Under the pieces are notes generated by a model. It searched no databases. It had not been told where the DNA came from and saw only the letters and a list, made by a program, of their open reading frames with translations. From Anaerolineae bacterium (GTDB lineage: Bacteria; Chloroflexota; Anaerolineae; UBA1429): a stretch of DNA of 64,000 nt. Below, piece after piece: positions 11,730 to 60,593 of this stretch. The stretch covers positions 3,072,001 through 3,136,000 of the forward strand of contig OY776562.1 of the NCBI GenBank assembly GCA_963675785.1, written 5' to 3'. Both the position numbers and the translations under genes were made by a program. Numbering within the stretch: position 1 is the stretch's first letter; each line of letters begins with the position of its first letter.

Positions 11730-13607
11730 ATGTATTCCTATAGCGGCAGAGTTCTACATGTCGATGTTGGCACGCGTACTTCATGGGTGGAGCAGCTCGA
11801 TGAATCGCTCCTTAAAAAGCTGCTGGGAGGCGTGGGTTTGGCCACCTGGTTGGTTTACAAAAACACGCCCGCTGGTTGTGACCCGCTTGGCCCGGATAAC
11901 GCGCTCTGTTTTGCCTGTAGTGTGTTTGCTGGCACTACTATGCCGGTAGGCACCAAACATGCGGTGGCCAGCAAGTCACCCTTGACGGGTGTCATTGGCG
12001 ATTCGCTCTCTGGCAGCCACTTTTCTGAGGAGCTGCGCCGCGCCGGGTGGGATGGTATTGTCATCAAGGGGCAGGCGCCCGACTGGACCCTTTTGTTCAT
12101 TGATGATGACGATGTTCGCTTTCTCGAAGCTGGTGATTTGGTTGGCATGGGCTGTATGGGCACACAGCAGCGCGTGCGCGACTTGTTCGGCGATGAGAAC
12201 GTACGGGTGAGTTCCATCGGGCCGGCCGGCGAGAATTTGGTGCGTTTTGCTTCGATTGACAATGACGGCCGCCAAGTGGGTCGCACGGGCAATGGCACGG
12301 TGATGGGTAGCAAAAAGATCAAAGCCATTGCTTTGCGAGGCTCCAAGCCTGTCAGCGTGGCTGATCCCAAAGGTTTGCTGGCAGAGACCAAACGGCTCAT
12401 CCAAGTGGCACAAGGCCCGGGCACGTTCAAGTATCGTACGTTAGGTACCCCCGCCAACGTGCTGAATATGAACAAGATCGGCGTACTGCCCACACGAAAC
12501 TTTTCCGAGACGATTTTTGAACACGCCAACGAGATCAGTGGTGAATTCCTCCGCGACCATCTGTTGGTCAAAGAAGTGGCCTGTTCGGGCTGCCCTATCG
12601 CCTGTGAGCATTGGGCCGAGATCAAAGAGGGCCCCTACAAAGGCTCGATGATCGGTGTGGATTACGAACCCCTCTTCTCGCTGGGTTCCAACTGCGGCAT
12701 TGGCGATTTTGGCCCCATTGTGCACCTCATCGAAATGTGCGATGACCTGGGCATGGACGCCATGAGCGCCGGTGTGGTCATTAGTTGGGCTATGGAAGCT
12801 TTTGAACGGGGTGTATTTACTACCGAGGACACTGGCGGCTTGGAACTAAACTTTGGCAACGATGTGGCCGCCGTGGAAATTCTCAGACAAATTGCTTACC
12901 GTGAGGGATTGGGCGATCTATTGGCTGAGGGCGTCAAGCGCGCTTCAGAGCATACGGGCAAGGGCAGTGAGCACTATGCCATGCACATCAAGGGGCTAGA
13001 GATGCCTGGTTACGATGTGCGCAGCCTAAAGACCTTTGCCATGGGCCTGGCTGTGGGCACCCGCGGTGGCTGCCACAATCGCTCTCTGGCTTACGAGGCG
13101 GACATCAAGGGAGAGGTCGACCGTTTTACGGCGGATTCGAGCCGTGGCGCTATTGCCCGCGATAAAGAGAACTTTGCAGCCATCCTCGATTCGCTGGTTT
13201 TGTGCAAGTTCATCCGTAATGCCTTTGATGACTTTTACGAGGATGTGGCCCGCCTCTACAACATGGTCACAGGCCTTGATCTAACGGCGGCAGAGCTCAA
13301 GGCAGTAGGGGAGCGGGTTTGGAATCTGAAAAAGGCCTTTAACATTCGTGAGGGTTGGACGCGCGCTGACGACTGGCTGCCCGATCGTGTGCTCATGGAT
13401 CCGGTTCCTGATGGGCCATCCAAGGGCTCTTTTGTGACGGCGGACGAGCTCAATATGATGATCGATTCGTACTATGTGGCTCGTGGATGGACACCGGAAG
13501 GCTTGATCCCCCGCGAGAAACTGATTGAGTTGGGCCTTGGGGACATAGCCGACGACATTTGCCCAAGTTTGGTGGTAGCACCGGAACCTGCGGTCAAGGA
13601 GGCCTAG
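11730..13607 (+). CDS. aor: Aldehyde:ferredoxin oxidoreductase family (tungstopterin) catalytic subunit
   Basis: KSPLTG, SIGPAGENLVRFASI, GRTGNGTVMGSKKIKAI, CSGCPIAC, DDLGMDAMSAG, RGGCH. Confidence 0.95.
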   Translation: MYSYSGRVLHVDVGTRTSWVEQLDESLLKKLLGGVGLATWLVYKNTPAGCDPLGPDNALCFACSVFAGTTMPVGTKHAVASKSPLTGVIGDSLSGSHFSEELRRAGWDGIVIKGQAPDWTLLFIDDDDVRFLEAGDLVGMGCMGTQQRVRDLFGDENVRVSSIGPAGENLVRFASIDNDGRQVGRTGNGTVMGSKKIKAIALRGSKPVSVADPKGLLAETKRLIQVAQGPGTFKYRTLGTPANVLNMNKIGVLPTRNFSETIFEHANEISGEFLRDHLLVKEVACSGCPIACEHWAEIKEGPYKGSMIGVDYEPLFSLGSNCGIGDFGPIVHLIEMCDDLGMDAMSAGVVISWAMEAFERGVFTTEDTGGLELNFGNDVAAVEILRQIAYREGLGDLLAEGVKRASEHTGKGSEHYAMHIKGLEMPGYDVRSLKTFAMGLAVGTRGGCHNRSLAYEADIKGEVDRFTADSSRGAIARDKENFAAILDSLVLCKFIRNAFDDFYEDVARLYNMVTGLDLTAAELKAVGERVWNLKKAFNIREGWTRADDWLPDRVLMDPVPDGPSKGSFVTADELNMMIDSYYVARGWTPEGLIPREKLIELGLGDIADDICPSLVVAPEPAVKEA

Positions 13608-49601: not shown

Positions 49602-52160
49602 ATGTTGCGCCCCCATCGCGTATATAATGTTGTCCCGTCTTTGCCGGCGTCGCTAGCTGCGCTGGAACCTCTTTCACGAAACCTATGGTGGTCATGGAAT
49701 CCCGACGCAATTGAGCTGTTCTTGCGACTGGATCGAGACCTCTGGGAACAATATAGACATAACCCCATTCGCTTGCTGGGAGCCGTCCGCCAGGAGAGAC
49801 TGGAGCATCTGGCTCAAGATGATGGCTTTATCGCTCATCTCGAGCGGGTTTGGGCTGCTTTTCAAGCGTATGTGGATAACAAAGATACATGGTATGCGAA
49901 CCATTGTCGCTCAGAAAATCTCTCGGTCGCCTATTTTTCCGCCGAGTTTGGCATTACGGAATGTGTTCCCAATTATTCGGGCGGACTTGGCATTCTTTCA
50001 GGAGACCACCTCAAATCGGCCAGTGACCTTGGCCTACCTCTGGTAGGCGTTGGCTTACTCTATCAACAAGGATACTTTCGCCAATATCTCAATGTAGATG
50101 GCTGGCAGCAAGAGTCCTATCCCATCAACGATTTCTATACCATGCCTATGTCACTTGTTCAGGGTGAGGACGGCGTACCTATTCATATCCAGGTCGATTA
50201 CCCCGGCAGAGCGGTGACAGCGCAGGTGTGGCTGGTCGAGGTTGGCCGAATCTCGCTTTACTTGTTGGATACCAACATCTCCGAGAACTCTGCCGATGAC
50301 CGCGGCATCACCAGTCAGCTCTATGGCGGCTATGATGATATGCGCATCCAGCAGGAGATTATGCTGGGTATTGGTGGAATACGCACGCTTTGGGCCATGG
50401 GGATGGAGCCGAATGTCTTTCATATGAACGAAGGTCATTCATCTTTCCTGGCACTAGAGCGAGTGCGGCGGCTGATCCAGGAAAAGGGGCTGGATTTCGA
50501 GGCAGCTCGACTTGCTACACGCGCCGGCAATGTGTTTACCACACACACACCTGTTCCGGCCGGTATTGACCTATTCCCTCCCAATATGATGGATCAGTAC
50601 TTTTCGTATTATTGGTCACAACTCGGTCTTGACCGCCAAGCGTTCCTGTATCTTGGACAGCGAGGCAACACGGGTGGCGACCGATTCTCTATGGCGGTGT
50701 TAGCGCTAGAGCTGGCCGACCACGTCAATGGCGTGAGCAAAATACACAGCCAGGTAGCGCGCGATATGTGGAAGGTGCTATGGCCGCAGACGCCCAAGCG
50801 CGAAGTGTCCATTAGCGCCATTACCAACGGCGTTCATGCTCCGAGTTGGGTTTCTCATGATATGGGCGATCTGTATCTGCGCTATCTTGGCCCGGGCTGG
50901 CGTGAACGTCCTTGGGACAAGTCGGTCTGGTTGAGGGTTGATTCCATTCCTGATGCCGAGCTGTGGCGAACCCATGAGCGGCGGCGTGAGCGGTTAGTTT
51001 CAACAGCGCGTGGGCGCTTGGTGGATCAACTGGTTAGCAAAGGGGCTTCTACGCAAGAAATTGGCGATGCGCGAGATGCTTTGGATCCCGAAGTGCTGAC
51101 CATTGGCTTTGCGCGGCGTTTTGCCACATACAAGCGGGCAACGTTGCTGTTCCGTGATCCAGAACGGCTTGCTCGCATTCTCAATGATCCTGAAAGACCC
51201 GTGCAGATTATCTTTGCGGGCAAGGCCCATCCGCATGATAACCCCGGCAAGGAACTCATCCGCCAGATTGTGCACTATTCGCGACAGCCCGAGTTTCAAG
51301 GACATGTGGTTTTTATTGAAAATTATGACATGAACCTGGCCCGCTATTTGTTGCAGGGTGTCGATATCTGGTTGAATACACCACGAAGTGGCCTGGAAGC
51401 TAGCGGCACCAGTGGTATGAAGGCTGCTATGAATGGTGCTTTGAATTGCAGCGCCTATGATGGCTGGTGGTGCGAGGGGTATTCTAACGGCGCAGGCTGG
51501 AGCATTGGGCGTGGTGAAAAGTATGATGATCCCAACTATGGTGATGAAGTTGAGGCGCGCGCGTTGTACGACATTCTAGAAAAGGATGTTGTGCCGCGAT
51601 TCTATAGCCGTGGGCACGACGGGCTGCCCCATAATTGGATTTCGATGATGAAGAGCTCGATTGGCTCGATTGCGCCCCAGTTCTCTTCCCATCGAATGGT
51701 GGAACAGTACTGCAGTGAGATGTACGAGCCAGCTTTTGAGAGGCATCACCAACTGGTCGAGAATGACTATCAAGTGGTCAAGGAATTGGCCTCTTGGGTG
51801 GGCAAGATCAAGGCACATTGGGGCGAACTGAGCGTGGTATCTGTCGAATCTTCCGCGGATGATAGCATGTCGGTGGGTGAAGACATTGAGATCAAGACAA
51901 CAATACGTCTTGGTGCTTTGGACCCCAAGGATATTCAGGTTCTTGTCTACCATGGCATTGTGGATGAAACTGGCACTTTGGGCGATTATGAGATCGCCGA
52001 TATGGATGGCGTGTGCGAGGTGGATGGAAGTCAGTGTGCCTATCGCGGCACTATATCCAATCACCATAGTGGAAGGCACGGTTATACTGTGTGCCTCAGG
52101 CCGCACCACCCCGAATATGGCGAGGTTTCATTGCCAGGCTACGTTTTGTGGTCTGATTAG
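49602..52160 (+). CDS. glgP: Alpha-glucan (glycogen) phosphorylase
   Basis: YSGGLGILSGDH, NEGH, ARRFATYKR, EASGTSGMKA. Confidence 0.96.
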   Translation: MLRPHRVYNVVPSLPASLAALEPLSRNLWWSWNPDAIELFLRLDRDLWEQYRHNPIRLLGAVRQERLEHLAQDDGFIAHLERVWAAFQAYVDNKDTWYANHCRSENLSVAYFSAEFGITECVPNYSGGLGILSGDHLKSASDLGLPLVGVGLLYQQGYFRQYLNVDGWQQESYPINDFYTMPMSLVQGEDGVPIHIQVDYPGRAVTAQVWLVEVGRISLYLLDTNISENSADDRGITSQLYGGYDDMRIQQEIMLGIGGIRTLWAMGMEPNVFHMNEGHSSFLALERVRRLIQEKGLDFEAARLATRAGNVFTTHTPVPAGIDLFPPNMMDQYFSYYWSQLGLDRQAFLYLGQRGNTGGDRFSMAVLALELADHVNGVSKIHSQVARDMWKVLWPQTPKREVSISAITNGVHAPSWVSHDMGDLYLRYLGPGWRERPWDKSVWLRVDSIPDAELWRTHERRRERLVSTARGRLVDQLVSKGASTQEIGDARDALDPEVLTIGFARRFATYKRATLLFRDPERLARILNDPERPVQIIFAGKAHPHDNPGKELIRQIVHYSRQPEFQGHVVFIENYDMNLARYLLQGVDIWLNTPRSGLEASGTSGMKAAMNGALNCSAYDGWWCEGYSNGAGWSIGRGEKYDDPNYGDEVEARALYDILEKDVVPRFYSRGHDGLPHNWISMMKSSIGSIAPQFSSHRMVEQYCSEMYEPAFERHHQLVENDYQVVKELASWVGKIKAHWGELSVVSVESSADDSMSVGEDIEIKTTIRLGALDPKDIQVLVYHGIVDETGTLGDYEIADMDGVCEVDGSQCAYRGTISNHHSGRHGYTVCLRPHHPEYGEVSLPGYVLWSD

Positions 52161-52172
52161 ATTTCCGAATAG

Positions 52173-52276
52173 CTCTCCGAGTTATGTGGCCTGAGGCCAA
52201 TCCTTTGGGCGGGTATGGCGCATAACCGATGGGTGCGGGTGGAAACGCCCGCGCCTCCCGTGTTTGGAAAGGGGAG
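52173..52276 (+). ncRNA. Moco-family riboswitch lacking P3 (Tuco-type)
   Basis: CTCTCCGAG-TTATGTG..CCTGAGG..TATGG-CGCATAA-CCGAT-GGGTGCGGGT GGAAAC GCCCGCGCC-TCCCGTGTTTGGAAAGGGGAG fits the Moco RNA consensus (CCU.AGG/UAUGG, GAAA loop, CCUCCCG.UUUGGAAAGG). Confidence 0.9.
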
Positions 52277-52294
52277 ACGTTTTCCTGCTCGTTC

Positions 52295-52333
52295 AGCGAG
52301 TAGGCGTCTTCTTGCGCCTGCTCGCTTTTTGTT
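52295..52333 (+). terminator. Riboswitch expression-platform terminator
   Basis: AGCGAGTAGGCG-TCTTCTTG-CGCCTGCTCGCT-TTTTGTT just before the RBS. Confidence 0.8.
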
Positions 52334-52351: not shown

Positions 52352-53710
52352 TTGACGGAAGAAAAACGTTACTATTTTACCACGCGGGACTTGCTTATTA
52401 TGGCCGCCATGGCTGGCCTGGGTGGTGTGGCTAGTACGGCAATCAATGCGCTTGGTGATGTGATGCAGGCAGCCTTGGGTTTTGCTGGCACTACGCAGTG
52501 GGCCGCCGGTCTTCACACAATCTTTTTGCTTCTTGTTGTGGGGCTGGTTCGTAAAGGCGGTGCAGCTACATTGGCCGGATTGCTCAAGGGGGCCGTTGAG
52601 CTGCTCAGTGGCAACACCCACGGCATTATTATTCTATTGGTTGATTTAGCAGCTGGATTGATCATCGATTTGGTTTTTGCCCTGGTACAGCAGCGCCAAA
52701 GCCTATTGGTTTATATACTGGCTGGTGCATTTTCGGCGGCCAGTAACGTCATTGTTTTTCAATTGTTTGCTCTGGCGCCGGAAGATGTCCTTGCAGCTGT
52801 CTGGCTGGTGGCCCTGGTTGCAGCGGTTTCGGGCGCACTGCTAGGCGGTTGGGTTGCATGGTTGCTGCTGGGTGTGCTTCACAAGAATGGTCTGGTTCGA
52901 GAGGAGCCGGTGCGTACCATGCGCGGCTGGCGCTATGCTGTGTTTCTAGGCGTTTTTGCGCTGATTCTCATTGGCGGGAGCTGGACCATGGTGGAATCCT
53001 TGGCTGGGCCGCCGGTGATCGATATTCGTGTGGATGGCGAGGTGGTCTACCAATTTTCGCCCGATGACGACAACCTACCTCTCATTGTCGAAGATGTCGA
53101 ACTGAACGGCATCAAACGTAGTGTAAGCGGCTATAAATTGGCCGAGGTCATTGCTTTGGCTGTCAGTGGTACGGAATATGGCTCGGCGCTAATCTCTGCC
53201 ACGGATGGCTATTCCTTTTTCATTACTGATCGCGAGATTGAGGAAAACACAGAGCTGCTGTTGGCAGTGAGCGGCGAGGGTGAGGACACCAGTTACGAGA
53301 TCGTCGGTGCCGAGAACTCGAAAGCCTGGGTGCGTAACGTAGCTACCATTGATCTGGCCGAACAAACGCTCATCGAGGTGTCGGGCTTGATTGGTCTGCC
53401 CTCACCCTACAATCCCGCTGACTGGCAATACGAGATGGACAGTGCCTATCTGGATGTGGGGTATGGCGAGCAAAAATACCAGGGAACTATTGCCGCCGAT
53501 GTGCTGACAGCCTGGGAACCTTCAACAGGCGCAGAATCGGCCGTATTTTACAGTGCGGATGAACAGGTTGAACTAAGCCTGGAAGAGATTGCCACGGATC
53601 GCAGCTTGCGCATTTGGTCGGTCAATGCTGCTGGTGGAACCAGTTTTGCTCTGGCCACTGAAGGTGGCGAGATATTGTTGACCGACGTCGAACGTATCGA
53701 GGTCAAATGA
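52352..53710 (+). CDS. ECF transporter S component (YkoE-like) fused to two extracytoplasmic molybdopterin-oxidoreductase-like domains
   Basis: N-terminal ~185 aa hydrophobic (FTTRDLLIMA...VRKGGAATL), extra TM, then repeats G.kL..v...SATDGYS...WVRNV..I and YQG....vL...LTDVERIEV. Confidence 0.8.
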   Translation: MTEEKRYYFTTRDLLIMAAMAGLGGVASTAINALGDVMQAALGFAGTTQWAAGLHTIFLLLVVGLVRKGGAATLAGLLKGAVELLSGNTHGIIILLVDLAAGLIIDLVFALVQQRQSLLVYILAGAFSAASNVIVFQLFALAPEDVLAAVWLVALVAAVSGALLGGWVAWLLLGVLHKNGLVREEPVRTMRGWRYAVFLGVFALILIGGSWTMVESLAGPPVIDIRVDGEVVYQFSPDDDNLPLIVEDVELNGIKRSVSGYKLAEVIALAVSGTEYGSALISATDGYSFFITDREIEENTELLLAVSGEGEDTSYEIVGAENSKAWVRNVATIDLAEQTLIEVSGLIGLPSPYNPADWQYEMDSAYLDVGYGEQKYQGTIAADVLTAWEPSTGAESAVFYSADEQVELSLEEIATDRSLRIWSVNAAGGTSFALATEGGEILLTDVERIEVK

Positions 53711-53713
53711 ACT

Positions 53714-55162
53714 GTGTCTGAGCCGATGGTGCGCATCGACCAGCTCTCTTTTCGCTATGCAGCTGGTGAAACGCTGGCCCTCGATCATGTTTCGCTGGCG
53801 GTCGACAAGGGCGAGTTTGTGGTGTTGACCGGACCAAGCGGCTGCGGCAAGTCGACGTTGGCACTAGCCATGGGCGGTTACCTGGCGCATCAATTCAAAG
53901 GAGAGTTCGAGGGCACTGTTGAGGTGGCCGACGTCGATACGCTCCGAGAGCCGCTTTATCAGGTGGCGGACGTGGTCGGTTTGGTGCAGCAGAACCCGGA
54001 GGATCAGTTTTGCACCTTGCGGGTGGACGATGAGGTGGCCTTTGGTCCAGAGAATCGTTGTGTAGAGCCACTGATGATTCGCCAACTTGAGCAGAATTCG
54101 TTGATGAGGGCTCAAGCTCAGCATCTTGAGGGTCGTCTGCTGGATTCGCTCTCTGGCGGTGAAAAGCAACGGGTGGCTCTGGCGTCTATGCTGGCTGGCA
54201 CGCCGCAATTGTTGATTTTGGACGAGCCCACATCCAGCCTCGACCCTCAGGCTACACAGGATGTGTTGGCAGTATTGGATAATCTTCGTCGCGAGCGTGG
54301 CCTGACTCTGATCGTCATCGAACACAAATTGGATGCCCTGATGCGCTTTAATCCGCGTATTGTGCGTATGGCCCAGGGGCACATCGAACAAGATCATTCT
54401 GTTTTTCAGCCAACTGTACCCGTAGTTCATGCACCCTCAATGGCAGGTAAGGTTGCTGTGGCACTAGAGGGCGTCTCCGTCACTCTAGAAGATCATCACG
54501 CACTCGATAACGTAACTGTAGATTTTCACTCTGGCCAGTTGACTGCTCTGATGGGAGCCAATGGTGCTGGCAAGACCACACTCTTGCGGGTCATCCGCGG
54601 TTTACAGCCTGTGCGGAGAGGTTGTGTTTGTGTGTTAGGTCAGGATGTTGCCAAGGATACTGTGTCAGCTCTAGCCGGGCGCGTGGGGTTTATGTTTCAG
54701 AATCCCGATCACCAGTTGCTAAGCGATACGGTGCAAGGTGACATGGCTTTTGGTCTATCTGCCCAGCAGGTCACCCAAGATGCACTTTATCATCAGCAAT
54801 TGCTTGAATTGGCTGGTCTTTGGGAGCTGCGCAATAGACACCCCTTTTCTCTGAGCTATGGGCAAAAGAGGCGTCTGAATCTGTCTTCACTGTTGGCGCA
54901 AAAACCGCAGATCATTCTGGTTGACGAACCGCTCATTGGGCAGGACCCTAACAACGCCCAGTATGTCATGGGGGTGCTCAGGGCCGCTGCGGATGAAGGC
55001 GTTTGTGTGATCGCGGCACTTCATGCCCCGGGGATGGTTCAGCGCTTTGCAGACAGGGTTGTGTTTTTGGCTCAGGGGCGTATCGATATCGATGCGGCAC
55101 CGGATGCTGCCTTTGCCGCATTGTCTTCCTCCGGGCGCAAAGCTTTTGCAGGTATGTTATGA
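53714..55162 (+). CDS. ECF transporter tandem ATPase (A-A' fusion)
   Basis: GPSGCGKST / LSGGEKQR / DEPT and GANGAGKTT / LSYGQKRR / DEP; QNP Q-loops. Confidence 0.92.
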   Translation: MSEPMVRIDQLSFRYAAGETLALDHVSLAVDKGEFVVLTGPSGCGKSTLALAMGGYLAHQFKGEFEGTVEVADVDTLREPLYQVADVVGLVQQNPEDQFCTLRVDDEVAFGPENRCVEPLMIRQLEQNSLMRAQAQHLEGRLLDSLSGGEKQRVALASMLAGTPQLLILDEPTSSLDPQATQDVLAVLDNLRRERGLTLIVIEHKLDALMRFNPRIVRMAQGHIEQDHSVFQPTVPVVHAPSMAGKVAVALEGVSVTLEDHHALDNVTVDFHSGQLTALMGANGAGKTTLLRVIRGLQPVRRGCVCVLGQDVAKDTVSALAGRVGFMFQNPDHQLLSDTVQGDMAFGLSAQQVTQDALYHQQLLELAGLWELRNRHPFSLSYGQKRRLNLSSLLAQKPQIILVDEPLIGQDPNNAQYVMGVLRAAADEGVCVIAALHAPGMVQRFADRVVFLAQGRIDIDAAPDAAFAALSSSGRKAFAGML

Positions 55163-55911
55163 CAGCCAGCATGAGCCGTCTCGGAGTGGTTGGGCGCATT
55201 CATCCCTTACCCAAATTTGCCTGGCTCCTGGCTGTTTCGGTGGCCGTGTTTGTGGTGGGCCAACCGGTGGTTATTTGGGCCATCGTCCTAGGGCTCGTAC
55301 TGGTGGGTTATCCTTATCTGGTCGGTAGGTCGCGTGCGTTCCGCCTGACTATATTCTCTACGTTGGGACTTTTTCTGCTGCAGGCGCTATTTTACCACCA
55401 GGGACGGGTGCTGTTCGATCTGTGGCCGGGAGAGGCGCAATGGTCGGTGACAGTAGACGGTCTGCTACGCGGACTGCGTGTATCGGGTCGCTTTCTCGCC
55501 ATTATACTGGCCAGCCAGGTGTTTGTAGGGTCGACAGACTCTAGCGAACTGGCCTACAGCCTGATGCAGGCTGGCGTTCCCTATCGATTTGGCTTTGCGC
55601 TTGTCTCAGCCCTGCGTATGACGCCTATGTTTCGCAGTGAGGGTCGTACAGTGTACGAAGCTCAACTTTGCCGAGGCGTGGCGCTGGATCGCGGTGGCTT
55701 GCGTGGCCTTTTGGTTAGGCTGCAGCGCTTTTTGTTGCCGCTGGTGGTATCTGCTCTCAGAAGGGTCGATAGCCTGTCCATCTCGATGGAAGGCCGACAC
55801 TTTGGGCGTTATCGAACCCGAACCTTTGCACAACCTTTGCATCACCACCGCAGAGACTACGCGGTCTGGGGGTTATTGATTTTTTTCATCGCCATCATCG
55901 TCGTCCTGTAG
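55159..55911 (+). CDS. ecfT: ECF transporter transmembrane component T
   Basis: HPLPK, ALRM.P, EAQLCRG, SMEGRHF coupling-helix motifs; ATGA overlap. Confidence 0.9.
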   Translation: MTASMSRLGVVGRIHPLPKFAWLLAVSVAVFVVGQPVVIWAIVLGLVLVGYPYLVGRSRAFRLTIFSTLGLFLLQALFYHQGRVLFDLWPGEAQWSVTVDGLLRGLRVSGRFLAIILASQVFVGSTDSSELAYSLMQAGVPYRFGFALVSALRMTPMFRSEGRTVYEAQLCRGVALDRGGLRGLLVRLQRFLLPLVVSALRRVDSLSISMEGRHFGRYRTRTFAQPLHHHRRDYAVWGLLIFFIAIIVVL

Positions 55912-55921
55912 GTGGGCCAAT

Positions 55922-57844
55922 ATGTGGAACGAGTTTCTGTACAGTATCGCGACCTATCCCTACCTCTATGCACTGTTCACTGGCGTTATGCTCCTGTGGA
56001 TCACTGTAGGGCTACACGCCCTACGTCGTGTGCGGCAGGCGCCTGACGAGCGACCACGCCTCACCTTCAAAAAATTTGGCGCTGCATTCCAAGAAGCGTT
56101 GGTTCAACGGCGCATCTGGCGGAGGCCTCTGGCCGGTGCGATGCACCTCTGCCTGTTTGCCGCAGGGGTGCTCATTCTGGTGGCCTATATTATGACTCAC
56201 CATGTTGCCCCTCGTGGCGAGGCTTGGCAGGCCAGCCGCACTGCACATTTCATTGCTGATTTGGGCGTAATGCTAGGTTTTGTTGGACATATGCTGGCGG
56301 GCTGGCGACGTTTTATTCGCAAAGAGACCTCTCGCGCCTTTAGCGATGTGCTGTTGTGGGGCTTGGGCTTTGTGTTCATCATCGCCTATGGCCTGGCTAA
56401 TGCGTTACAGGTGGCCATCACCGATCCAAATTGGCAGCGTGCGGCCTTTTTGAGCCGCCCGATAGCTGGGCTTTTCTCAGGCATGGCGACTCTTACACTG
56501 CGCTCACTTTACGGGTTAGTTTGGGCTCTTGTCCACGGCTCTTTGTTCGTAGGCGTTTTGCTGGTACCCCTGACCAAGTGGCGCCACGTTTTGGCAATCG
56601 TAGTCAACCTTGCGCATGCGGACGATCTTCCGCCAGCAGTAGCTGTCTCCGAGGATCTGAATGGTGATGGGCCCTTTGGTCTGGGGCGAACGGATCAGCT
56701 CAGCAAGAAGCAACTCTACGAAACCTGGGCTTGCGTTCGTTGTGGGCGTTGTAGCACGGTCTGTCCGGCAACGATGACTGGCAAGATGCTTGATCCGCTC
56801 AAACTGATAGAGGCCGAGCTGGAAGCCCCAAGGATGGCCAGCTTACCCGACTTTATCGATCAGGAGGCACTTTGGCAGTGCAGCATGTGCCTGGCCTGCG
56901 CGGATGTATGCCCTGCGGATATTGCCCCCTGGCGCCATTTACTGGATATGCGTCGCGAGCGCGTGCTGGAGGCGGCCGAGTTTCCCCAAGAGCTTCAAGG
57001 CGTTTTTCGCGGCATAGAGCGGCGCGGCAACCCGTGGGGCACGGCTACCAACAAGAGCGAAATCGCTCGTGAAGCAGGTGTGCGCCTATTATCCAAAGGC
57101 GATTCTTGCGATGTGTTGCTGTGGATGGGCTGTATGGTGGCGGTGGACCCACTGGCACAGCAGGCCTGGCGGGCTATGGCGCAGTTGTTGGCAGCGGCCG
57201 ACGTCGATGTGGCTTGCCTGGGCGATGCCGAGCCCTGCTGCGGCGATGCAGCACGCCGTCTAGGCAATGAGTACATCTGGCAGCAACAGGTGGAGACCGT
57301 GAGTGATGCCATGCATGATATTCATGTGGGACGGGTTGTCTCAGTTTGCCCACATTGCGCTAACACTTTGGGCAACGAGTATCCGCAGGGACTTTGGCAG
57401 GGCGTGTCTCACGCTCTTGAAGAATTGAGCTGTCTGGCCCAGGAGGGGCGTATCGTCCCCGAGGCACATCAGGTCAAGCCCTGTCGTGTGGTTTACCATG
57501 ATCCTTGCTATTTGGCGCGCGGCCTTGACGTCATTGATTCTGTGCGCCGACTGCTTGTTGCCACGCCAGGTTGCGAACTAGTCGAGCCTGCGCACAAGGG
57601 CAAGGATGTGTGGTGTTGCGGTGCGGGCGGCGGCCAGATGTGGCTTCAAGAGGATGACGGTGCGGCTTTGGGCCAGTCACTCTTTGATGAACTGGCCAAT
57701 ACCAAGGCCGAACTAATACTCTCTGCATGTCCTTATTGTGATACGACACTGCAATCTGAGTTTGGCAATACGAACGATGTAAGTGATGTGGTGATTTTTA
57801 TCGCCAATCGATGGCGTGCTAGTGACAGGAGTGATCAAGGGTGA
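55922..57844 (+). CDS. Membrane Fe-S oxidoreductase (NarI-like TM + 2[4Fe-4S] + two CCG domains; HdrD/HdrF/FadF-like)
   Basis: TM His residues (AMHL, LVHG, KWRH), CVRCGRCSTVCP, CSMCLACADVCP, CCGD, CPHC, YHDPCYL, CCGAGGG, ACPYC. Confidence 0.88.
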   Translation: MWNEFLYSIATYPYLYALFTGVMLLWITVGLHALRRVRQAPDERPRLTFKKFGAAFQEALVQRRIWRRPLAGAMHLCLFAAGVLILVAYIMTHHVAPRGEAWQASRTAHFIADLGVMLGFVGHMLAGWRRFIRKETSRAFSDVLLWGLGFVFIIAYGLANALQVAITDPNWQRAAFLSRPIAGLFSGMATLTLRSLYGLVWALVHGSLFVGVLLVPLTKWRHVLAIVVNLAHADDLPPAVAVSEDLNGDGPFGLGRTDQLSKKQLYETWACVRCGRCSTVCPATMTGKMLDPLKLIEAELEAPRMASLPDFIDQEALWQCSMCLACADVCPADIAPWRHLLDMRRERVLEAAEFPQELQGVFRGIERRGNPWGTATNKSEIAREAGVRLLSKGDSCDVLLWMGCMVAVDPLAQQAWRAMAQLLAAADVDVACLGDAEPCCGDAARRLGNEYIWQQQVETVSDAMHDIHVGRVVSVCPHCANTLGNEYPQGLWQGVSHALEELSCLAQEGRIVPEAHQVKPCRVVYHDPCYLARGLDVIDSVRRLLVATPGCELVEPAHKGKDVWCCGAGGGQMWLQEDDGAALGQSLFDELANTKAELILSACPYCDTTLQSEFGNTNDVSDVVIFIANRWRASDRSDQG

Positions 57845-58689
57845 GCAAGCGATGGACGTGGCTCCTCGTCGGGGCCATTGGTGTTGTAATCGGTATCGGT
57901 TTGGCCAGCTGGAAGACCTTTCCCATCGAGGATATGATTGCACGAACTACTTGCGCTGAATGTCATGATGTGCACGGGGCTCTCGAAATTGCCCAAGTTC
58001 CAGCTCAGAGCCAGGTCTGGATCTTGGGCGATGTGCCGGAATCCACTTATTTCTTTGTAAATGATCTTTTTCCTCTTGCAGACGAGACGGAGGGTACGAG
58101 TATTTCACTCATCGACTTGTTGGCCGATTATGGGGTGACGGATTGGGAAAAGGTCTCAATTGAATCCCTCGATGGCGGACTGGTAACGCTGGAGCGCCAG
58201 TATGTCACGGAGAATTCCCTTCTTGTGCCCTATGTCGATGGCATTCGCTTCAAGGATGTCAATCTGCACGAATCCACCTGGCTCAAGGGTGTACGCTTTA
58301 TCACTGTACAGGGCAGCGAGACGCCCCTGCTTCTCGGAGATACGCAGACTTCGTTAGGGCGTTTGCTGATGGGTGATCGCACAGCCGTTATAGCCGAAGC
58401 CAGTGATGCGCTATATTCCAGTCCTGTGGACGGACAGATTTACCAGGGTAACTATGCGCACATTTACACTGGCGCGTCGCTTGTTTCACTGTTGACGGCT
58501 TACCCAGAGGCAACTACTTTTGCCTGCACCAGCCAGGATAGCGAGACGGTATCATACACACGTGAGGAACTACAAGAGGCTGTCATTGCGCCGGTATCTG
58601 GTTTGCCTTCGCTGGTGCTGCCGCAGTATGGTCAGGGGAGCTGGGTCATTGGGATTGAGAGCATTGTGCCAGAGGATGGGGAGAGTTGA
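57841..58689 (+). CDS. Membrane-anchored protein with single CxxCH and two molybdopterin-oxidoreductase-like domains
   Basis: N-terminal TM, CAECH, SLIDLL..ESLDG...WLKGVRFI and YTGASL...SQD...WVIGIESI. Confidence 0.65.
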   Translation: MSKRWTWLLVGAIGVVIGIGLASWKTFPIEDMIARTTCAECHDVHGALEIAQVPAQSQVWILGDVPESTYFFVNDLFPLADETEGTSISLIDLLADYGVTDWEKVSIESLDGGLVTLERQYVTENSLLVPYVDGIRFKDVNLHESTWLKGVRFITVQGSETPLLLGDTQTSLGRLLMGDRTAVIAEASDALYSSPVDGQIYQGNYAHIYTGASLVSLLTAYPEATTFACTSQDSETVSYTREELQEAVIAPVSGLPSLVLPQYGQGSWVIGIESIVPEDGES

Positions 58690-58690
58690 T

Positions 58691-59824
58691 ATGTTGCGAG
58701 TGAAGAGATTGGGGGCATTGCCAAGTGCGCTACTGGCGATAGCCCTAGTTGCGGGTTGTTCGCCCAGGTGGGAGATTGGACTGACCATTGATGGGGATGT
58801 ACGTTCACCGCTTACTGGCCAGCAATGGAGCACGGCACTAGAAAGTTATCCGGATGAATGCGTTGAAGATAGTGTTCCCCTGGAACGGCTTTTATCCATG
58901 GCTTCTGTTCCGGCGGTAGAGTCAGTAAGCGTAGACGACCAATCATGGTATTGGGCCGATGTGTATGACGATGCCTGGGTAGAAAAGGGCGGTACGCTGG
59001 TCATCGCTGGTGAAAGCATAGAGACAAAAGATATTAGCATCGTTTTGCCGACACTTGATGCTTCGGTAACAGTTGAGCTGATAGATATTGCTCCCACAAT
59101 TGCTGGCGCGTTGGGAGTTCGTTCGCCGGAGGATACTGAGGGCCGTGCTGTAGCAGCTTTTGACGCCGAACATGTCGTCCATATTTTTTTGGATGGCTTT
59201 GGCTATGAGAACTATCAATCGGTTGTAGGTACGCGCACTACATCCTTTCTAGACAGCCTGGGCGCTCCGCGTATTGCCCGAACAGTTTACCCTAGTGCGA
59301 CCAAGGCCTCGACGGCCGCGATGATTACCGGCGCTTCGCCCACGGTGAATGGTGTTTCTTCTGGTGAACTGCGCACCACCGAAAGCGAGACGATCTTTCA
59401 GGTTCTGACTGAGGCAGGGCTTTCTAGTGTGGCCGTGGAAGGTTCATCTTTGGCTTTCAATCTGGTCTCGACAGAGATCATTGTCTCGGGTGACCGCGAC
59501 GATGACGGCTATTCGGACGACAATACTTATGAGAATGCCCTCGAAGTGATGAACGAGGGATTGCCCGATTTCCTCTGGGTGCATTTTCATGGAATCGACG
59601 ATGCTGGGCACACGTACGGTCCGTTAGCTGACGAGACGCTGGCTATGATGACACGCGTGGATGGCTATGTTTCTGATATCGTACAGCGATTACCCGAGGG
59701 AACTCTGGTGATCATTTGCGCCGATCATGGAATGCACGATGTGGTAGAAGATGGCCGTCTGGGGAACCACGGTTCCCTCTTGTCTCAGGATATGTATATT
59801 CCCTTCTGGACGATTCAACTCTGA
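58691..59824 (+). CDS. Alkaline-phosphatase-superfamily (NPP-like) lipoprotein
   Basis: Lipobox VAGC, FLDGFG, YPSATKAS (Thr nucleophile), DDAGH, ADHG, GNHG. Confidence 0.82.
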   Translation: MLRVKRLGALPSALLAIALVAGCSPRWEIGLTIDGDVRSPLTGQQWSTALESYPDECVEDSVPLERLLSMASVPAVESVSVDDQSWYWADVYDDAWVEKGGTLVIAGESIETKDISIVLPTLDASVTVELIDIAPTIAGALGVRSPEDTEGRAVAAFDAEHVVHIFLDGFGYENYQSVVGTRTTSFLDSLGAPRIARTVYPSATKASTAAMITGASPTVNGVSSGELRTTESETIFQVLTEAGLSSVAVEGSSLAFNLVSTEIIVSGDRDDDGYSDDNTYENALEVMNEGLPDFLWVHFHGIDDAGHTYGPLADETLAMMTRVDGYVSDIVQRLPEGTLVIICADHGMHDVVEDGRLGNHGSLLSQDMYIPFWTIQL

Positions 59825-59832
59825 GTATAATG

Positions 59833-59876
59833 AAAGGGCGGGGAAGAGATTGGCCTCTTCCCCGCCCTTTTTTTTA
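59833..59876. terminator. Bidirectional terminator between the two riboswitch-led units
   Basis: AAAGGGCGGGGAAGAG-ATTGGC-CTCTTCCCCGCCCTTT-TTTTT. Confidence 0.88.
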
Positions 59877-60353
59877 TTCGACGACTTCGATACTCGTGAG
59901 TTTGTATAGCCAGCCATCGGCTGGTAGGTTGGGTATTACAACGCGAATAGGGGCGGTCTTGGTGTCGTCAGTGGTATAGACGCCATCCCTCTTCAAAGCG
60001 ATGATAGCCTGATCAAGATCCGAGATATTGACCTCCTTGGCATAGCCATCAGAGGCGGTGAGCAAGAGGCTGACGGCATTTTCACTCATGCCGGCTTCTT
60101 CCAAAATAGCCATCAGGTCGGGGCCTTCCCATGTGTTGGTCTCATTTTCGCCTTGCGACTTGCGCATGAGGACATTTTCGAGCACTACCTGATCCCGCTC
60201 AGTGAGATCCTGGTATGAGAGCGTAAGAGGCGTTTCTACGGCTCCAGTGATTTCTAGGTTCCAATCAACTTTGGGGGCACCATTACCGCAGCCTGTGGCA
60301 ACCAGCATGACGATGACAATAGCAACTACCATGGTAAGCGAGCGTTTTCTCAT
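59874..60353 (-). CDS. Lipoprotein with a single molybdopterin-oxidoreductase-like domain
   Basis: Lipobox ATGC, WNLEITGAV, WEGPDL, TASDGY, PIRVVIP, WLYKLTSIEV; ATG 60353 behind AAAGGA. Confidence 0.82.
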   Translation of the reverse strand: MRKRSLTMVVAIVIVMLVATGCGNGAPKVDWNLEITGAVETPLTLSYQDLTERDQVVLENVLMRKSQGENETNTWEGPDLMAILEEAGMSENAVSLLLTASDGYAKEVNISDLDQAIIALKRDGVYTTDDTKTAPIRVVIPNLPADGWLYKLTSIEVVE

Positions 60354-60447
60354 TTTGATCCTTTCGATATAGGAAGAATGCTCGCTCATGTCCGCCGTCG
60401 TGTTTGTACACAACAACACACAGCACGATTTTCGTGCTGCGATTGCG

Positions 60448-60575
60448 GTTCTCCTTTCCAAACACGGGCGGCATGAGCGTTTCCACTCAGACCGTTCGCC
60501 GGGCAATTGTGGTTGCCTGGCTGCGATCGCAGACCCTAGAGTTTTCTGTTCCGTAGGCCGTGCGATTCGGAGAAC
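60448..60575 (-). ncRNA. Moco-family riboswitch with P3 (Moco-type)
   Basis: Minus strand GTTCTCCGAA-TCGCA..CCTACGG..TAGG..TGCGA-[P3]-TGAGT GGAAAC GCTCA-TGCCGCCCGTGTTTGGAAAGGAGAAC; P1 GTTCTCC/GGAGAAC. Confidence 0.85.
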
Positions 60576-60593
60576 AGTCTATTCACTAGGGCT

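Follow-up and report, generated by a model that had tools for sequence, protein, structure and literature searches.

A riboswitch-associated ECF transporter with cysteine-less sulfite-oxidase-fold domains as a predicted salvage system for the tungsten/molybdenum-pyranopterin cofactor in Anaerolineae

Analysis of a 64,000-nucleotide stretch of the genome of an Anaerolineae bacterium (Chloroflexota, lineage UBA1429; assembly GCA_963675785.1, contig OY776562.1, forward-strand positions 3,072,001 to 3,136,000; hereafter "the window") revealed an operon for an energy-coupling factor (ECF) transporter whose S component carries an extracytoplasmic tail of two sulfite oxidase (SUOX)-fold domains. The operon, with a convergent gene for a small lipoprotein of the same fold, probably encodes a riboswitch-controlled ECF importer that salvages the tungsten- or molybdenum-pyranopterin cofactor (Tuco or Moco), with ligand binding and transport being predicted properties. 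The locus combines leader RNAs of the Moco/Tuco class, an ECF architecture, a fold devoid of the molybdenum-ligating cysteine and a gene order conserved among relatives, and its occurrence is linked to genomes in which the synthesis of the cofactor is missing while its consumers are retained. With less assurance, we also lean towards a wider proposition: that auxotrophic bacteria import the intact, metal-loaded cofactor via ECF transporters with receptors derived from an enzyme pocket, that a surface phosphodiesterase and a haem module trim and protect it, and that Moco/Tuco would thus be a shared "vitamin".

The genome consists of one contig of 3.22 Mb with an estimated completeness of 94.8%, which allowed auxotrophy to be read directly and to be set beside a class-wide pattern of pathway, consumers and transporter. 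In Pfam and NCBIfam searches of its six-frame translation, no match was found to MoaC, the N-terminal domain of MoeA (MoeA_N), the C-terminal domain of MoaA (Mob_synth_C), MoaE or ModA. The sole match to MoCF_biosynth was an open reading frame (ORF) of 411 amino acids (aa), which we take to be CinA-like. The genome nevertheless encodes three tungstoenzymes of the aldehyde:ferredoxin oxidoreductase (AOR) family, a 702-aa cytoplasmic enzyme of the dimethyl sulfoxide (DMSO) reductase family (PF00384, 163 bits; PF01568, 99 bits; dmsA_ynfE, 512 bits) and a MobA-like protein, which scored 102–151 bits and thus under the curated cut-offs. One of the three AOR genes lies in the window itself, at 12405–13538 (+), 39 kb upstream of the operon (PF01314, 431 bits; 651-aa frame). 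MoaE and MoeA_N were not found, and the cargo in this genome would therefore have to be at least metal-loaded molybdopterin (MPT); uptake of cyclic pyranopterin monophosphate (cPMP) was rejected for this genome on the same grounds.

The distribution of the system was examined in 401 genomes of the class, drawn at a completeness of at least 90%, of which 343 also had a contamination of at most 5%. The S-component tail was detected in 30 of the 401 genomes, and 42 of the 401 were without a MoaC match. The latter comprised 15 of the 30 carriers vs. 27 of the 371 non-carriers, corresponding to an odds ratio of 12.7 (Fisher p 8e-9, uncorrected for phylogeny). When the MoaC-negative genomes were also searched for MoeA_N, both families were not found in 11 of the 30 carriers vs. 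8 of the 371 non-carriers. All 11 of these double-negative carriers encoded AOR genes (3–13 each), vs. only one of the eight double-negative non-carriers. In the window's own family, all 41 sampled genomes contained AOR genes, and the five carriers were exactly the five genomes without a MoaC match, whereas the other 17 had MoaC. One genome, G049 (92% completeness, 30 contigs), had 8 Molydop_binding and 13 AOR matches and neither MoaC nor MoeA_N. As a separate observation, a MoaC (PF01967) match was missing genus-wide while MoeA_N was kept and the S-component tail was not detected in three genera, namely g60 (G048, G145, G170, G249), g44 (G070, G133, G184, G224) and g88 (G099, G239, G301); this pattern may reflect a MoaC that is not orthologous or has diverged strongly, or else supply by a different route.

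The RNA elements point to the same cofactor. Both aptamers in the window were full length in the Rfam scan (model positions 1–135 of 135) and ended 62 and 83 nt before the respective start codons, each being followed by a terminator-like hairpin. In the alignment of aptamer 1, the P3 stem was deleted, and the folding energy of its expression platform was −25.5 kcal/mol (z −5.1). The whole genome contained three copies of RF01055, all of which precede genes of the Cys-less domain family, and seven of the eight genomic copies of the SUOX-type domain sit behind these three riboswitches. The third copy, which has P3 (G000:C1:851663-852888), precedes two tandem small Cys-less lipoproteins (A-S-D-G-Y ... 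S-S-A-W-A-K), which were detected with the hidden Markov model (HMM) of the window's lipoprotein at E 1.4e-11 and 2.8e-10, while Pfam alone gave E 0.0049.

To extend this to relatives, a scan of species genomes was used, in which 159 stretches matched and 104 encoded a relative; the best 80 of these loci were kept, all from Chloroflexota and mostly from Anaerolineae. Twenty-four of the 80 had upstream sequence present, were within the size limit and were scanned for riboswitches; in 22 of these, RF01055 preceded the S gene. P3 was absent from nine of the ten printed aptamer alignments from relatives, as it was from aptamer 1 of the window. RF01055 RNAs lacking P3 were reported, in the available text of the original description, to correlate with tungsten-cofactor metabolism (Regulski et al., 2008; PMC2408646). 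Separately, a divergent cobalamin riboswitch was observed just upstream of the Moco-riboswitch/ECF operon at two loci (L022:1435-1583(-) and L009:1-101(-)).

Transporters of molybdate and tungstate are common targets of control by RF01055, according to the same text (PMC2408646), so that the operon might instead encode an ECF importer of tungstate or molybdate, with surface domains binding the metal oxyanion rather than a pterin. No ModA match was found in the genome, and some ECF systems are known to transport metals (CbiMNQO, NikMNQO), both of which would suit such a function. We nevertheless consider oxyanion uptake very improbable. The oxyanion alone would be useless to a genome without MPT synthesis and MoeA, the core of the S component resembled YkoE (5EDL, Z 20.3) and not CbiM or NikM (5X3X, Z 8.8), and an NPP-type phosphodiesterase, which the operon encodes, has no role in oxyanion uptake. 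The residues conserved in the surface domains correspond by motif order, moreover, to those that stack the pterin in PruR, as the accessible part of that study describes it (PMC11194511).

The receptor part of the predicted importer consists of five extracytoplasmic domains, two in the S tail, two in a c-type haem protein and one in the small lipoprotein. As judged from their sequences, these are real homologues and not chance resemblances, because profile–profile comparison, fold and conserved fusion connect them. In hhalign comparisons between domain alignments cut from the 80 related loci, the first tail domain matched the second (98.7%, E 1.9e-16) and the lipoprotein (99.7%, E 3.4e-26), and the lipoprotein was also matched by the second tail domain (94.5%, E 7.4e-8) and by the first and second domains of the haem protein (90.8%, E 1.2e-6 and 96.6%, E 5.2e-10, respectively). 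In pairwise BLAST, the four exported proteins matched one another weakly at most (best E about 2e-4). When the five isolated domains were searched against Pfam, all four domains other than the lipoprotein stayed below the cut-off; the second tail domain alone weakly matched PF00174 (E 0.062), and no PF00174 match was obtained for the two haem-protein domains or for the N-terminal domain of the NPP-type lipoprotein. A sixth SUOX-like copy in the latter domain was considered and is not supported, since hhalign gave at most 6% against all five domains. Among solved structures, the lipoprotein profile matched SorA (E 2e-8), the Thermus sulfite oxidase (5e-7), SoxC and YedY (4.8e-5), as well as structures of the pterin-binding protein PruR (2.7e-4 and 6.5e-4), and the G-P-(I/L)-R and W motifs are conserved as in SUOX-family enzymes.

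The first-pass annotation of this DNA had described one motif recurring in all five domains. The five homologous domains stood up to hhalign and modelling, but the literal D-G-Y...W signature proved to be invariant only in the first tail domain and the lipoprotein: D-G-Y was present in 77 of 77 and W326 in 72 of 77 sequences of the former, and D-G-Y...W in 48 of 48 of the latter (the window protein plus 47 from related loci). By motif order, D-G-Y and the C-terminal W would be the counterparts of the pterin-stacking Tyr and Trp of PruR, with Asp in place of Asn. The annotation had also stated that the S tail and the lipoprotein domain lack Cys, and this was accurate: the S protein contains none, the lipoprotein has only its lipobox Cys22, and the haem protein has its two haem cysteines and Cys229. 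Its further claim that the residues LMRKSQG replace the Mo-ligating Cys agreed with the HMM alignment, which placed the ligand Cys ("VLQC") of the Thermus sulfite oxidase next to lipoprotein residues M63-R64-K65. This position was K in 44 of the 48 aligned rows and C in one, which was probably a mis-hit. The former Cys position thus reads M-x-K-S in the lipoprotein, not Pro-Trp as in PruR, and one Cys occurs elsewhere (R-L-V-C-P) in 26 of the 48 homologues. Export likewise appeared to be of the Sec, lipoprotein or membrane-anchored type rather than twin-arginine, as had been proposed, because no RR pair was seen on inspection of the N-termini of the three window proteins, which are of lipoprotein or signal-anchor type. 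The domains are 115–135 aa long and have no dimerisation domain, the first tail domain being as short as PruR.

Kinship to MsrP (YedY) and PF00174, likewise suggested in the first-pass annotation, was borne out by the lipoprotein (53.8 bits to PF00174; YedY at E 4.8e-5) and by the tail, for which a SUOX/PruR fold was modelled (YedY at Z 10.9). Together with the missing Mo-ligand Cys, this supports its main proposal, namely that an enzyme fold has been reused as a predicted non-catalytic extracytoplasmic receptor on an ECF S component. The proposal is strengthened by two features that the annotation did not contain: the Moco/Tuco riboswitches ahead of both transcription units, and a genome with several cofactor-dependent enzymes but no match to the searched families of MPT/Moco synthesis. 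Homologues of the small lipoprotein that are 2–4 times longer were seen at L015:14606-16390(-) and L048:4538-6394(-), and about 12 further loci have homologous frames of approximately 280–330 aa from the first start codon. This suggests arrays of capture domains within one protein.

The AlphaFold model of the S protein (mean predicted local distance difference test, pLDDT, 84.5; built on 30 sequences) separated a membrane core from the tail. From sequence and model, the core (aa 8–185) is a YkoE-type ECF S component, with 5EDL as the structural match at Z 20.3 (root-mean-square deviation, rmsd, 2.6; 176 residues aligned) and a profile match at E 1.6e-14. FolT, ThiT, PanT, RibU and BioY followed at Z 9–12, and 5X3X (CbiMQO) at only Z 8.8. 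A seventh helix (aa 192–216), preceded by a Lys/Arg-rich loop, is modelled between the core and the two tandem SUOX-fold domains (aa 220–336 and 337–452; DNA about 53003–53707). Domain 1 was closest to PruR (7KOM, Z 13.2, rmsd 3.0, 114 of 134 residues aligned), with further PruR structures in the range 12.1–13.2 (7KOU, Z 12.7; 7RKB, with neopterin, Z 12.5; and 7KOS). Domain 2 was closest to SorA (2C9X, Z 12.4, 115 aligned), followed by YedY (1XDY, Z 10.9), and sulfite oxidase was also among the structural matches of the tail domains. When the S-protein profile was searched against Protein Data Bank (PDB) sequences, the core matched only YkoE, and no match to the tail was obtained. The protein database contained 31 homologues of the S protein, about half of which already carried a PF00174 annotation. 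Together with the adjacent EcfA/A' and EcfT, the S component has, by sequence and model, the architecture of a group-I ECF transporter, the import itself being predicted.

The closeness of tail domain 1 to PruR in both fold and size (7KOM, Z 13.2; 7KOS; and 7RKB with neopterin) raises the question of whether a smaller or earlier pterin is taken up instead, such as a neopterin- or monapterin-type compound, cPMP or metal-free MPT, or whether the domains serve PruR-like extracellular pterin sensing. The available parts of two publications describe the PruR pocket as too short for Moco (PMC11194511, PMC13259868), and MoeA_N, found in four of the 15 MoaC-negative carriers (in one as a partial match), could insert metal into an imported metal-free pterin. 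However, the window's genome and the ten others without MoaC and MoeA_N matches contain 3–13 AOR genes each, and cPMP or metal-free MPT would not be maturable there because MoaC and MoeA_N were not found; MoaE was also not found in the window's genome, the one genome searched for it. The controlling RNA belongs to the Moco/Tuco class and not to the tetrahydrofolate or another pterin class, and Pfam scans of the seven operon genes gave no DcpA-like GGDEF/EAL partner. A smaller pterin or a sensing role is therefore, in our estimation, unlikely, although it is the foremost of the alternatives considered here.

Gene order among relatives ties the receptor domains to a transporter. Among the best 80 of the 104 loci, many of which are truncated, the S component was encoded in all 80, the A component in 76, the T component in 58, the haem protein in 47, the NPP lipoprotein in 39, the small lipoprotein in 50 and the HdrD-like protein in five. 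For the 45 loci whose sequence continues for 5.5 kb or more past the S gene, the corresponding numbers were 45, 45, 45, 41, 37, 42 and 5. The HdrD-like gene is thus a lineage-specific accessory. A protein of 127 aa that belongs to no known family was additionally seen in or near the cluster in 10 of the 80 loci (L034, L008, L013, L017, L020, L041 and four more). It has a duplicated L-P-C...C-Q-L-G motif, and its gene at L034:4160-4540(+) follows the riboswitch and precedes the S gene; its homologue in the window's genome (G000:C1:728804-729157, 38% identical) lies outside the operon.

Two accessory surface proteins accompany the transporter in most of the longer loci. The haem protein has a CAECH motif (aa 38–42) behind an N-terminal hydrophobic anchor, from which haem attachment is predicted. 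All 47 homologues had at least one CxxCH, and 36 of them had two; the one-haem form was present in all five loci with the HdrD-like protein. No curated family in Pfam or NCBIfam matched the haem protein, and its matches in the ESM Atlas were unnamed Chloroflexota clusters only. The second accessory protein is a lipoprotein with an N-terminal domain (aa ~24–140) and a nucleotide pyrophosphatase/phosphodiesterase (NPP) domain (aa ~155–377). Its model (pLDDT 93.2) matched ENPP7, PafA and the Xanthomonas (Xac) NPP at Z 20.4, and ENPP1, ENPP4 and ENPP6 at Z 18.6–19.3; the matches to the alkaline-phosphatase-superfamily domain filled this structural search. Seven residues, D168, T204, D303, D304, H307, D345 and H346, were invariant in 35 sequences and are presumably the metal-site and nucleophile residues of NPP enzymes (T nucleophile, D-x-x-G-H, D-H-G-M). 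The HdrD-like protein comprises a hydrophobic N-terminus, two 4Fe-4S and two CCG domains.

A haem protein next to SUOX-fold domains is the composition of SorAB and sulfite oxidase, and all 47 homologues of the haem protein carry CxxCH, so the exported proteins might form a surface redox enzyme (SorAB- or MsrPQ-like, with haem and a loaded SUOX domain) to which the ECF genes are merely adjacent. We rate the probability of this as very small: two of the domains sit in the S polypeptide itself, the Mo-ligand Cys is missing from all five, and the A and T genes are syntenic in 45 of 45 loci.

A further alternative assigns the transporter the opposite direction. The ECF module could move the cofactor outward, or solely inside the envelope, and so supply surface proteins exported via Sec, similar to RibU-EetB-FmnA of Listeria, which provides FAD for extracytosolic flavinylation; precedent for ECF-dependent extracytosolic cofactor trafficking is given in the accessible portion of that work (PMC9973259). 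A possible client is a Cys-bearing SUOX lipoprotein encoded elsewhere in the genome (G000:C1:1011750-1012391; PF00174, 109 bits; L-V-C-P-G; H-G-F-P-L-R...K-W-V-K-W), whose N-terminus is of lipoprotein and not twin-arginine type and which is apparently exported via Sec. If active, it would need to be loaded with cofactor outside the membrane. The haem-c and HdrD-like proteins of the operon suggest surface redox chemistry as well, and the 15 of the 30 carriers that have MoaC would be able to make the cofactor. Against outward transport, 11 carriers have no match to MoaC or MoeA_N and hence nothing to export, importers that are repressed in the replete cell usually have such a leader, with a cofactor-sensing riboswitch and then a terminator, and the capture domains do not have the Cys of functional enzymes. 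We regard it as improbable, and less probable than uptake of a smaller pterin.

The features of the locus are compiled in Table 1. The plus-strand genes (52352–59824) form a tight operon, to which the lipoprotein gene is convergent. An 852-aa ORF directly precedes the first riboswitch (window 49602–52160, +) and was found in the same position in 7 of the 80 loci, the closest relatives; read by eye, it is presumably a glycogen/alpha-glucan phosphorylase-like protein. The small lipoprotein contains an M-x-K-S-x-G-E-D loop, D-G-Y, G-P-I-R and W148.

Table 1. Predicted RNA elements and genes of the locus, in window coordinates, with the supporting evidence
Feature	Position	Strand	Evidence and remarks
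Moco/Tuco riboswitch aptamer 1 (RF01055, P3-lacking variant)	52163..52290	+	62 nt upstream of S gene; 73 bits vs. gathering threshold 36, E 2e-16
Expression platform	52284..52326	+	13-bp terminator hairpin (52295-52326) followed by TTTTTGTTG; overlapping alternative 9-bp hairpin (52284-52304); terminator scan
ECF S component with two extracytoplasmic SUOX/PruR-fold domains in 235-aa tail	52352..53710	+	PF09819, E 4e-16; AlphaFold model
Fused double ECF ATPase (EcfA-EcfA')	53714..55162	+	PF00005 twice; ECF_ATPase_1, 330.8 bits
ECF T component (CbiQ family)	55156..55911	+	PF02361, E 1.9e-22
Membrane-anchored HdrD/TfrB-like Fe-S protein	55922..57844	+	PF02754 (CCG), E 3e-26; Fer4 families; TfrB, 133 bits
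Signal-anchored c-type haem protein with two divergent SUOX-fold domains	57841..58689	+	CAECH at aa 38-42, invariant H45; hhalign to lipoprotein family
NPP-type phosphodiesterase lipoprotein (alkaline-phosphatase superfamily)	58691..59824	+	PF01663, E 2.8e-18, 67.1 bits vs. cut-off 23
Small lipoprotein, one SUOX-fold domain without Mo-ligand Cys	59874..60353	-	PF00174 (Oxidored_molyb), 53.8 bits vs. cut-off 24, E 2.3e-14
Moco/Tuco riboswitch aptamer 2 (RF01055, P3-like stem)	60436..60584	-	Upstream of small lipoprotein gene; 60 bits, E 1.4e-12
Terminator-like hairpin near aptamer 2	60441-60419	-	Terminator scan
Promoter-like site near aptamer 2	60622-60594	-	Promoter scan

Cofactor salvage by this operon would proceed as follows. 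The organism, apparently without the searched families for MPT synthesis and metal insertion and yet predicted from its sequence to possess AOR-, DMSO-reductase- and SUOX-type enzymes and a MobA-like guanylyltransferase, would take its cofactor from outside. The RF01055 aptamers predicted before all genes of the system would shut them off once the intracellular cofactor suffices. Outside the membrane, the Cys-less domains of the lipoprotein, the S tail and the two lipoproteins encoded elsewhere could reversibly capture free or released cofactor. By analogy with the binding of neopterin by PruR, the conserved Tyr and Trp would sandwich the pterin, and the covalent Mo-S(Cys) bond that locks the cofactor into enzymes would not be formed. 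Dinucleotide forms, MPT guanine dinucleotide (MGD) and MPT cytosine dinucleotide (MCD), would be trimmed by the NPP-type lipoprotein, which would remove guanosine or cytidine monophosphate (GMP or CMP) and yield the mononucleotide-free cofactor. The haem-c protein, in this lineage possibly fed by the HdrD-like Fe-S protein, may keep the oxygen-labile dithiolene and pterin reduced or re-reduce them. The S tail would then pass the ligand to the YkoE-like core, and the dedicated EcfAA'T module would import it. Inside the cell, MobA would turn part of it into the guanine dinucleotide used by the DMSO-reductase-family enzyme, while the AORs would use the cofactor directly.

Several points weigh against cofactor salvage as the function of the operon. 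Cofactor binding and uptake are themselves predictions from sequences and models, and the absences on which the auxotrophy is based are absences of matches to the family models searched. On the side of the receptor, the truncated pocket of PruR probably cannot hold Moco in the opinion of its authors, as far as the available text goes (PMC11194511, PMC13259868); the domains described here, and above all the lipoprotein with its longer M-x-K-S-x-G-E-D loop, would have to accommodate it nonetheless. The D-G-Y...W signature is lost from the second tail domain, and the haem-protein domains retain D-G and W, not the Tyr. The phyletic pattern is also imperfect. MoaC is present in 15 of the 30 carriers, and the system is thus not confined to auxotrophs, and MoeA_N is present in four of the 15 MoaC-negative carriers, one of these being a partial match. 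One genome with AOR genes and neither MoaC nor MoeA_N (G163) did not have a detectable S tail, and the two same-family carriers tested for Molydop_binding (G223 and G352) gave no match. The genomes counted are related to one another, so that the counts overstate their independence; the 11 double-negative carriers span only five families and seven genera. With respect to the RNA, minimum free energy (MFE) folding of the full leader gave a long-range alternative fold and no on/off decision, and the off-switch logic, in which the genes are shut off on ligand binding, is proposed from the layout. RF01055 was not found at two of the 24 scanned loci (L029 and L049), even at E 0.1.

The pathway that produces Moco and Tuco is long and conserved, and the cofactors are extremely oxygen-sensitive and usually held to be too labile for exchange. 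To our knowledge, the textbook view is that every prokaryote using Mo or W enzymes makes its own cofactor. In the literature searched, no ECF transporter for Moco, Tuco or a pterin, and no bacterial transporter for the cofactor or for unconjugated pterins, was found described. How pterins cross the membrane is stated to be unknown in the accessible text of a 2026 review (PMC13259868). The Moco riboswitch regulons listed in the available part of the original description comprise molybdate transporters, biosynthesis genes and Moco-using enzymes only (PMC2408646), and the "coenzyme uptake" categories of a riboswitch-regulon survey, as far as the available portion shows them, hold no Moco transporter (Sun et al., 2013; PMC3766115). 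On the best-supported reading, the operon encodes an ECF cofactor importer whose cargo and receptor architecture are both new. If this is true, it would provide the first case of receptor domains built into an ECF S component, and Moco/Tuco would constitute a new "vitamin" and a cross-feeding dependency in anaerobic communities such as those of sludge and subsurface sediments, in which Anaerolineae abound. It would likewise account for genomes with many AOR genes but no MPT pathway, and correct metabolic reconstructions that score W/Mo enzymes as non-functional. Components of the system could also provide tools to deliver Moco, of relevance to research on Moco deficiency.

Among characterised systems, the closest counterpart of the transporter is YkoEDC, the group-I ECF importer for thiamine or hydroxymethylpyrimidine (HMP) of B. 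subtilis (5EDL), with which it shares the fold and family of the S component, a fused double ATPase, its own T component and the layout of a riboswitch-controlled cofactor importer. The ykoEDC genes are controlled by thiamine pyrophosphate (TPP). The operon described here differs in the seventh helix, the 235-aa SUOX-fold tail, the Moco/Tuco instead of a TPP riboswitch, and the accessory haem-c protein, NPP lipoprotein and capture lipoprotein. ECF S components normally bind their substrate without a soluble receptor. The closest counterpart of the receptor domains is PruR of Agrobacterium, Vibrio and Klebsiella (7KOU/7KOS, 7KOM, 7KP2, 7RKB), which is likewise an exported, minimal SUOX fold without the Mo-ligand Cys and is non-catalytic, as is predicted for the domains described here. 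In PruR of A. tumefaciens, the pterin is sandwiched by Y104 and W160 and hydrogen-bonded by N102, according to the accessible part of the study (PMC11194511). Whereas PruR signals together with the c-di-GMP (cyclic diguanylate) enzyme DcpA, has a Trp at the Cys position, binds ligands from the folate branch and is proteobacterial, the domains described here are fused or linked to a transporter, have the conserved M-x-K-S-x-G-E-D loop in the lipoprotein, are linked to Moco/Tuco through their riboswitches and phyletic distribution, and occur in Chloroflexota. From the SUOX enzymes (YedY/MsrP, 1XDQ; SorA, 2BLF/2C9X; sulfite oxidase, 1SOX; PF00174), whose fold and G-P-(I/L)-R and W motifs they share, the domains differ by having no Mo-ligating Cys, no dimerisation domain and, by inspection, no twin-arginine motif.

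Surface nucleotide pyrophosphatases prepare dinucleotide cofactors for uptake, as in Haemophilus, where nicotinamide adenine dinucleotide (NAD) is converted to nicotinamide mononucleotide or nicotinamide riboside (NMN/NR) before PnuC. The NPP/ENPP-type lipoprotein (Z about 20) beside the importer resembles this arrangement, and would by extension cleave MGD or MCD. The Listeria system, as described in the accessible portion of that work, is similar in that an ECF transporter is tied to extracytosolic cofactor-binding redox proteins, and differs in its cofactor (flavin/FAD, flavin adenine dinucleotide), in its direction and in having no fused receptor domains (PMC9973259). The overall arrangement is closest to that of the riboswitch-controlled salvage transporters for B12, thiamine, riboflavin, queuosine and folate, in which a cofactor-sensing leader precedes uptake genes in auxotrophs and prototrophs alike, as set out in the available portion of the regulon survey (Sun et al., 2013; PMC3766115).

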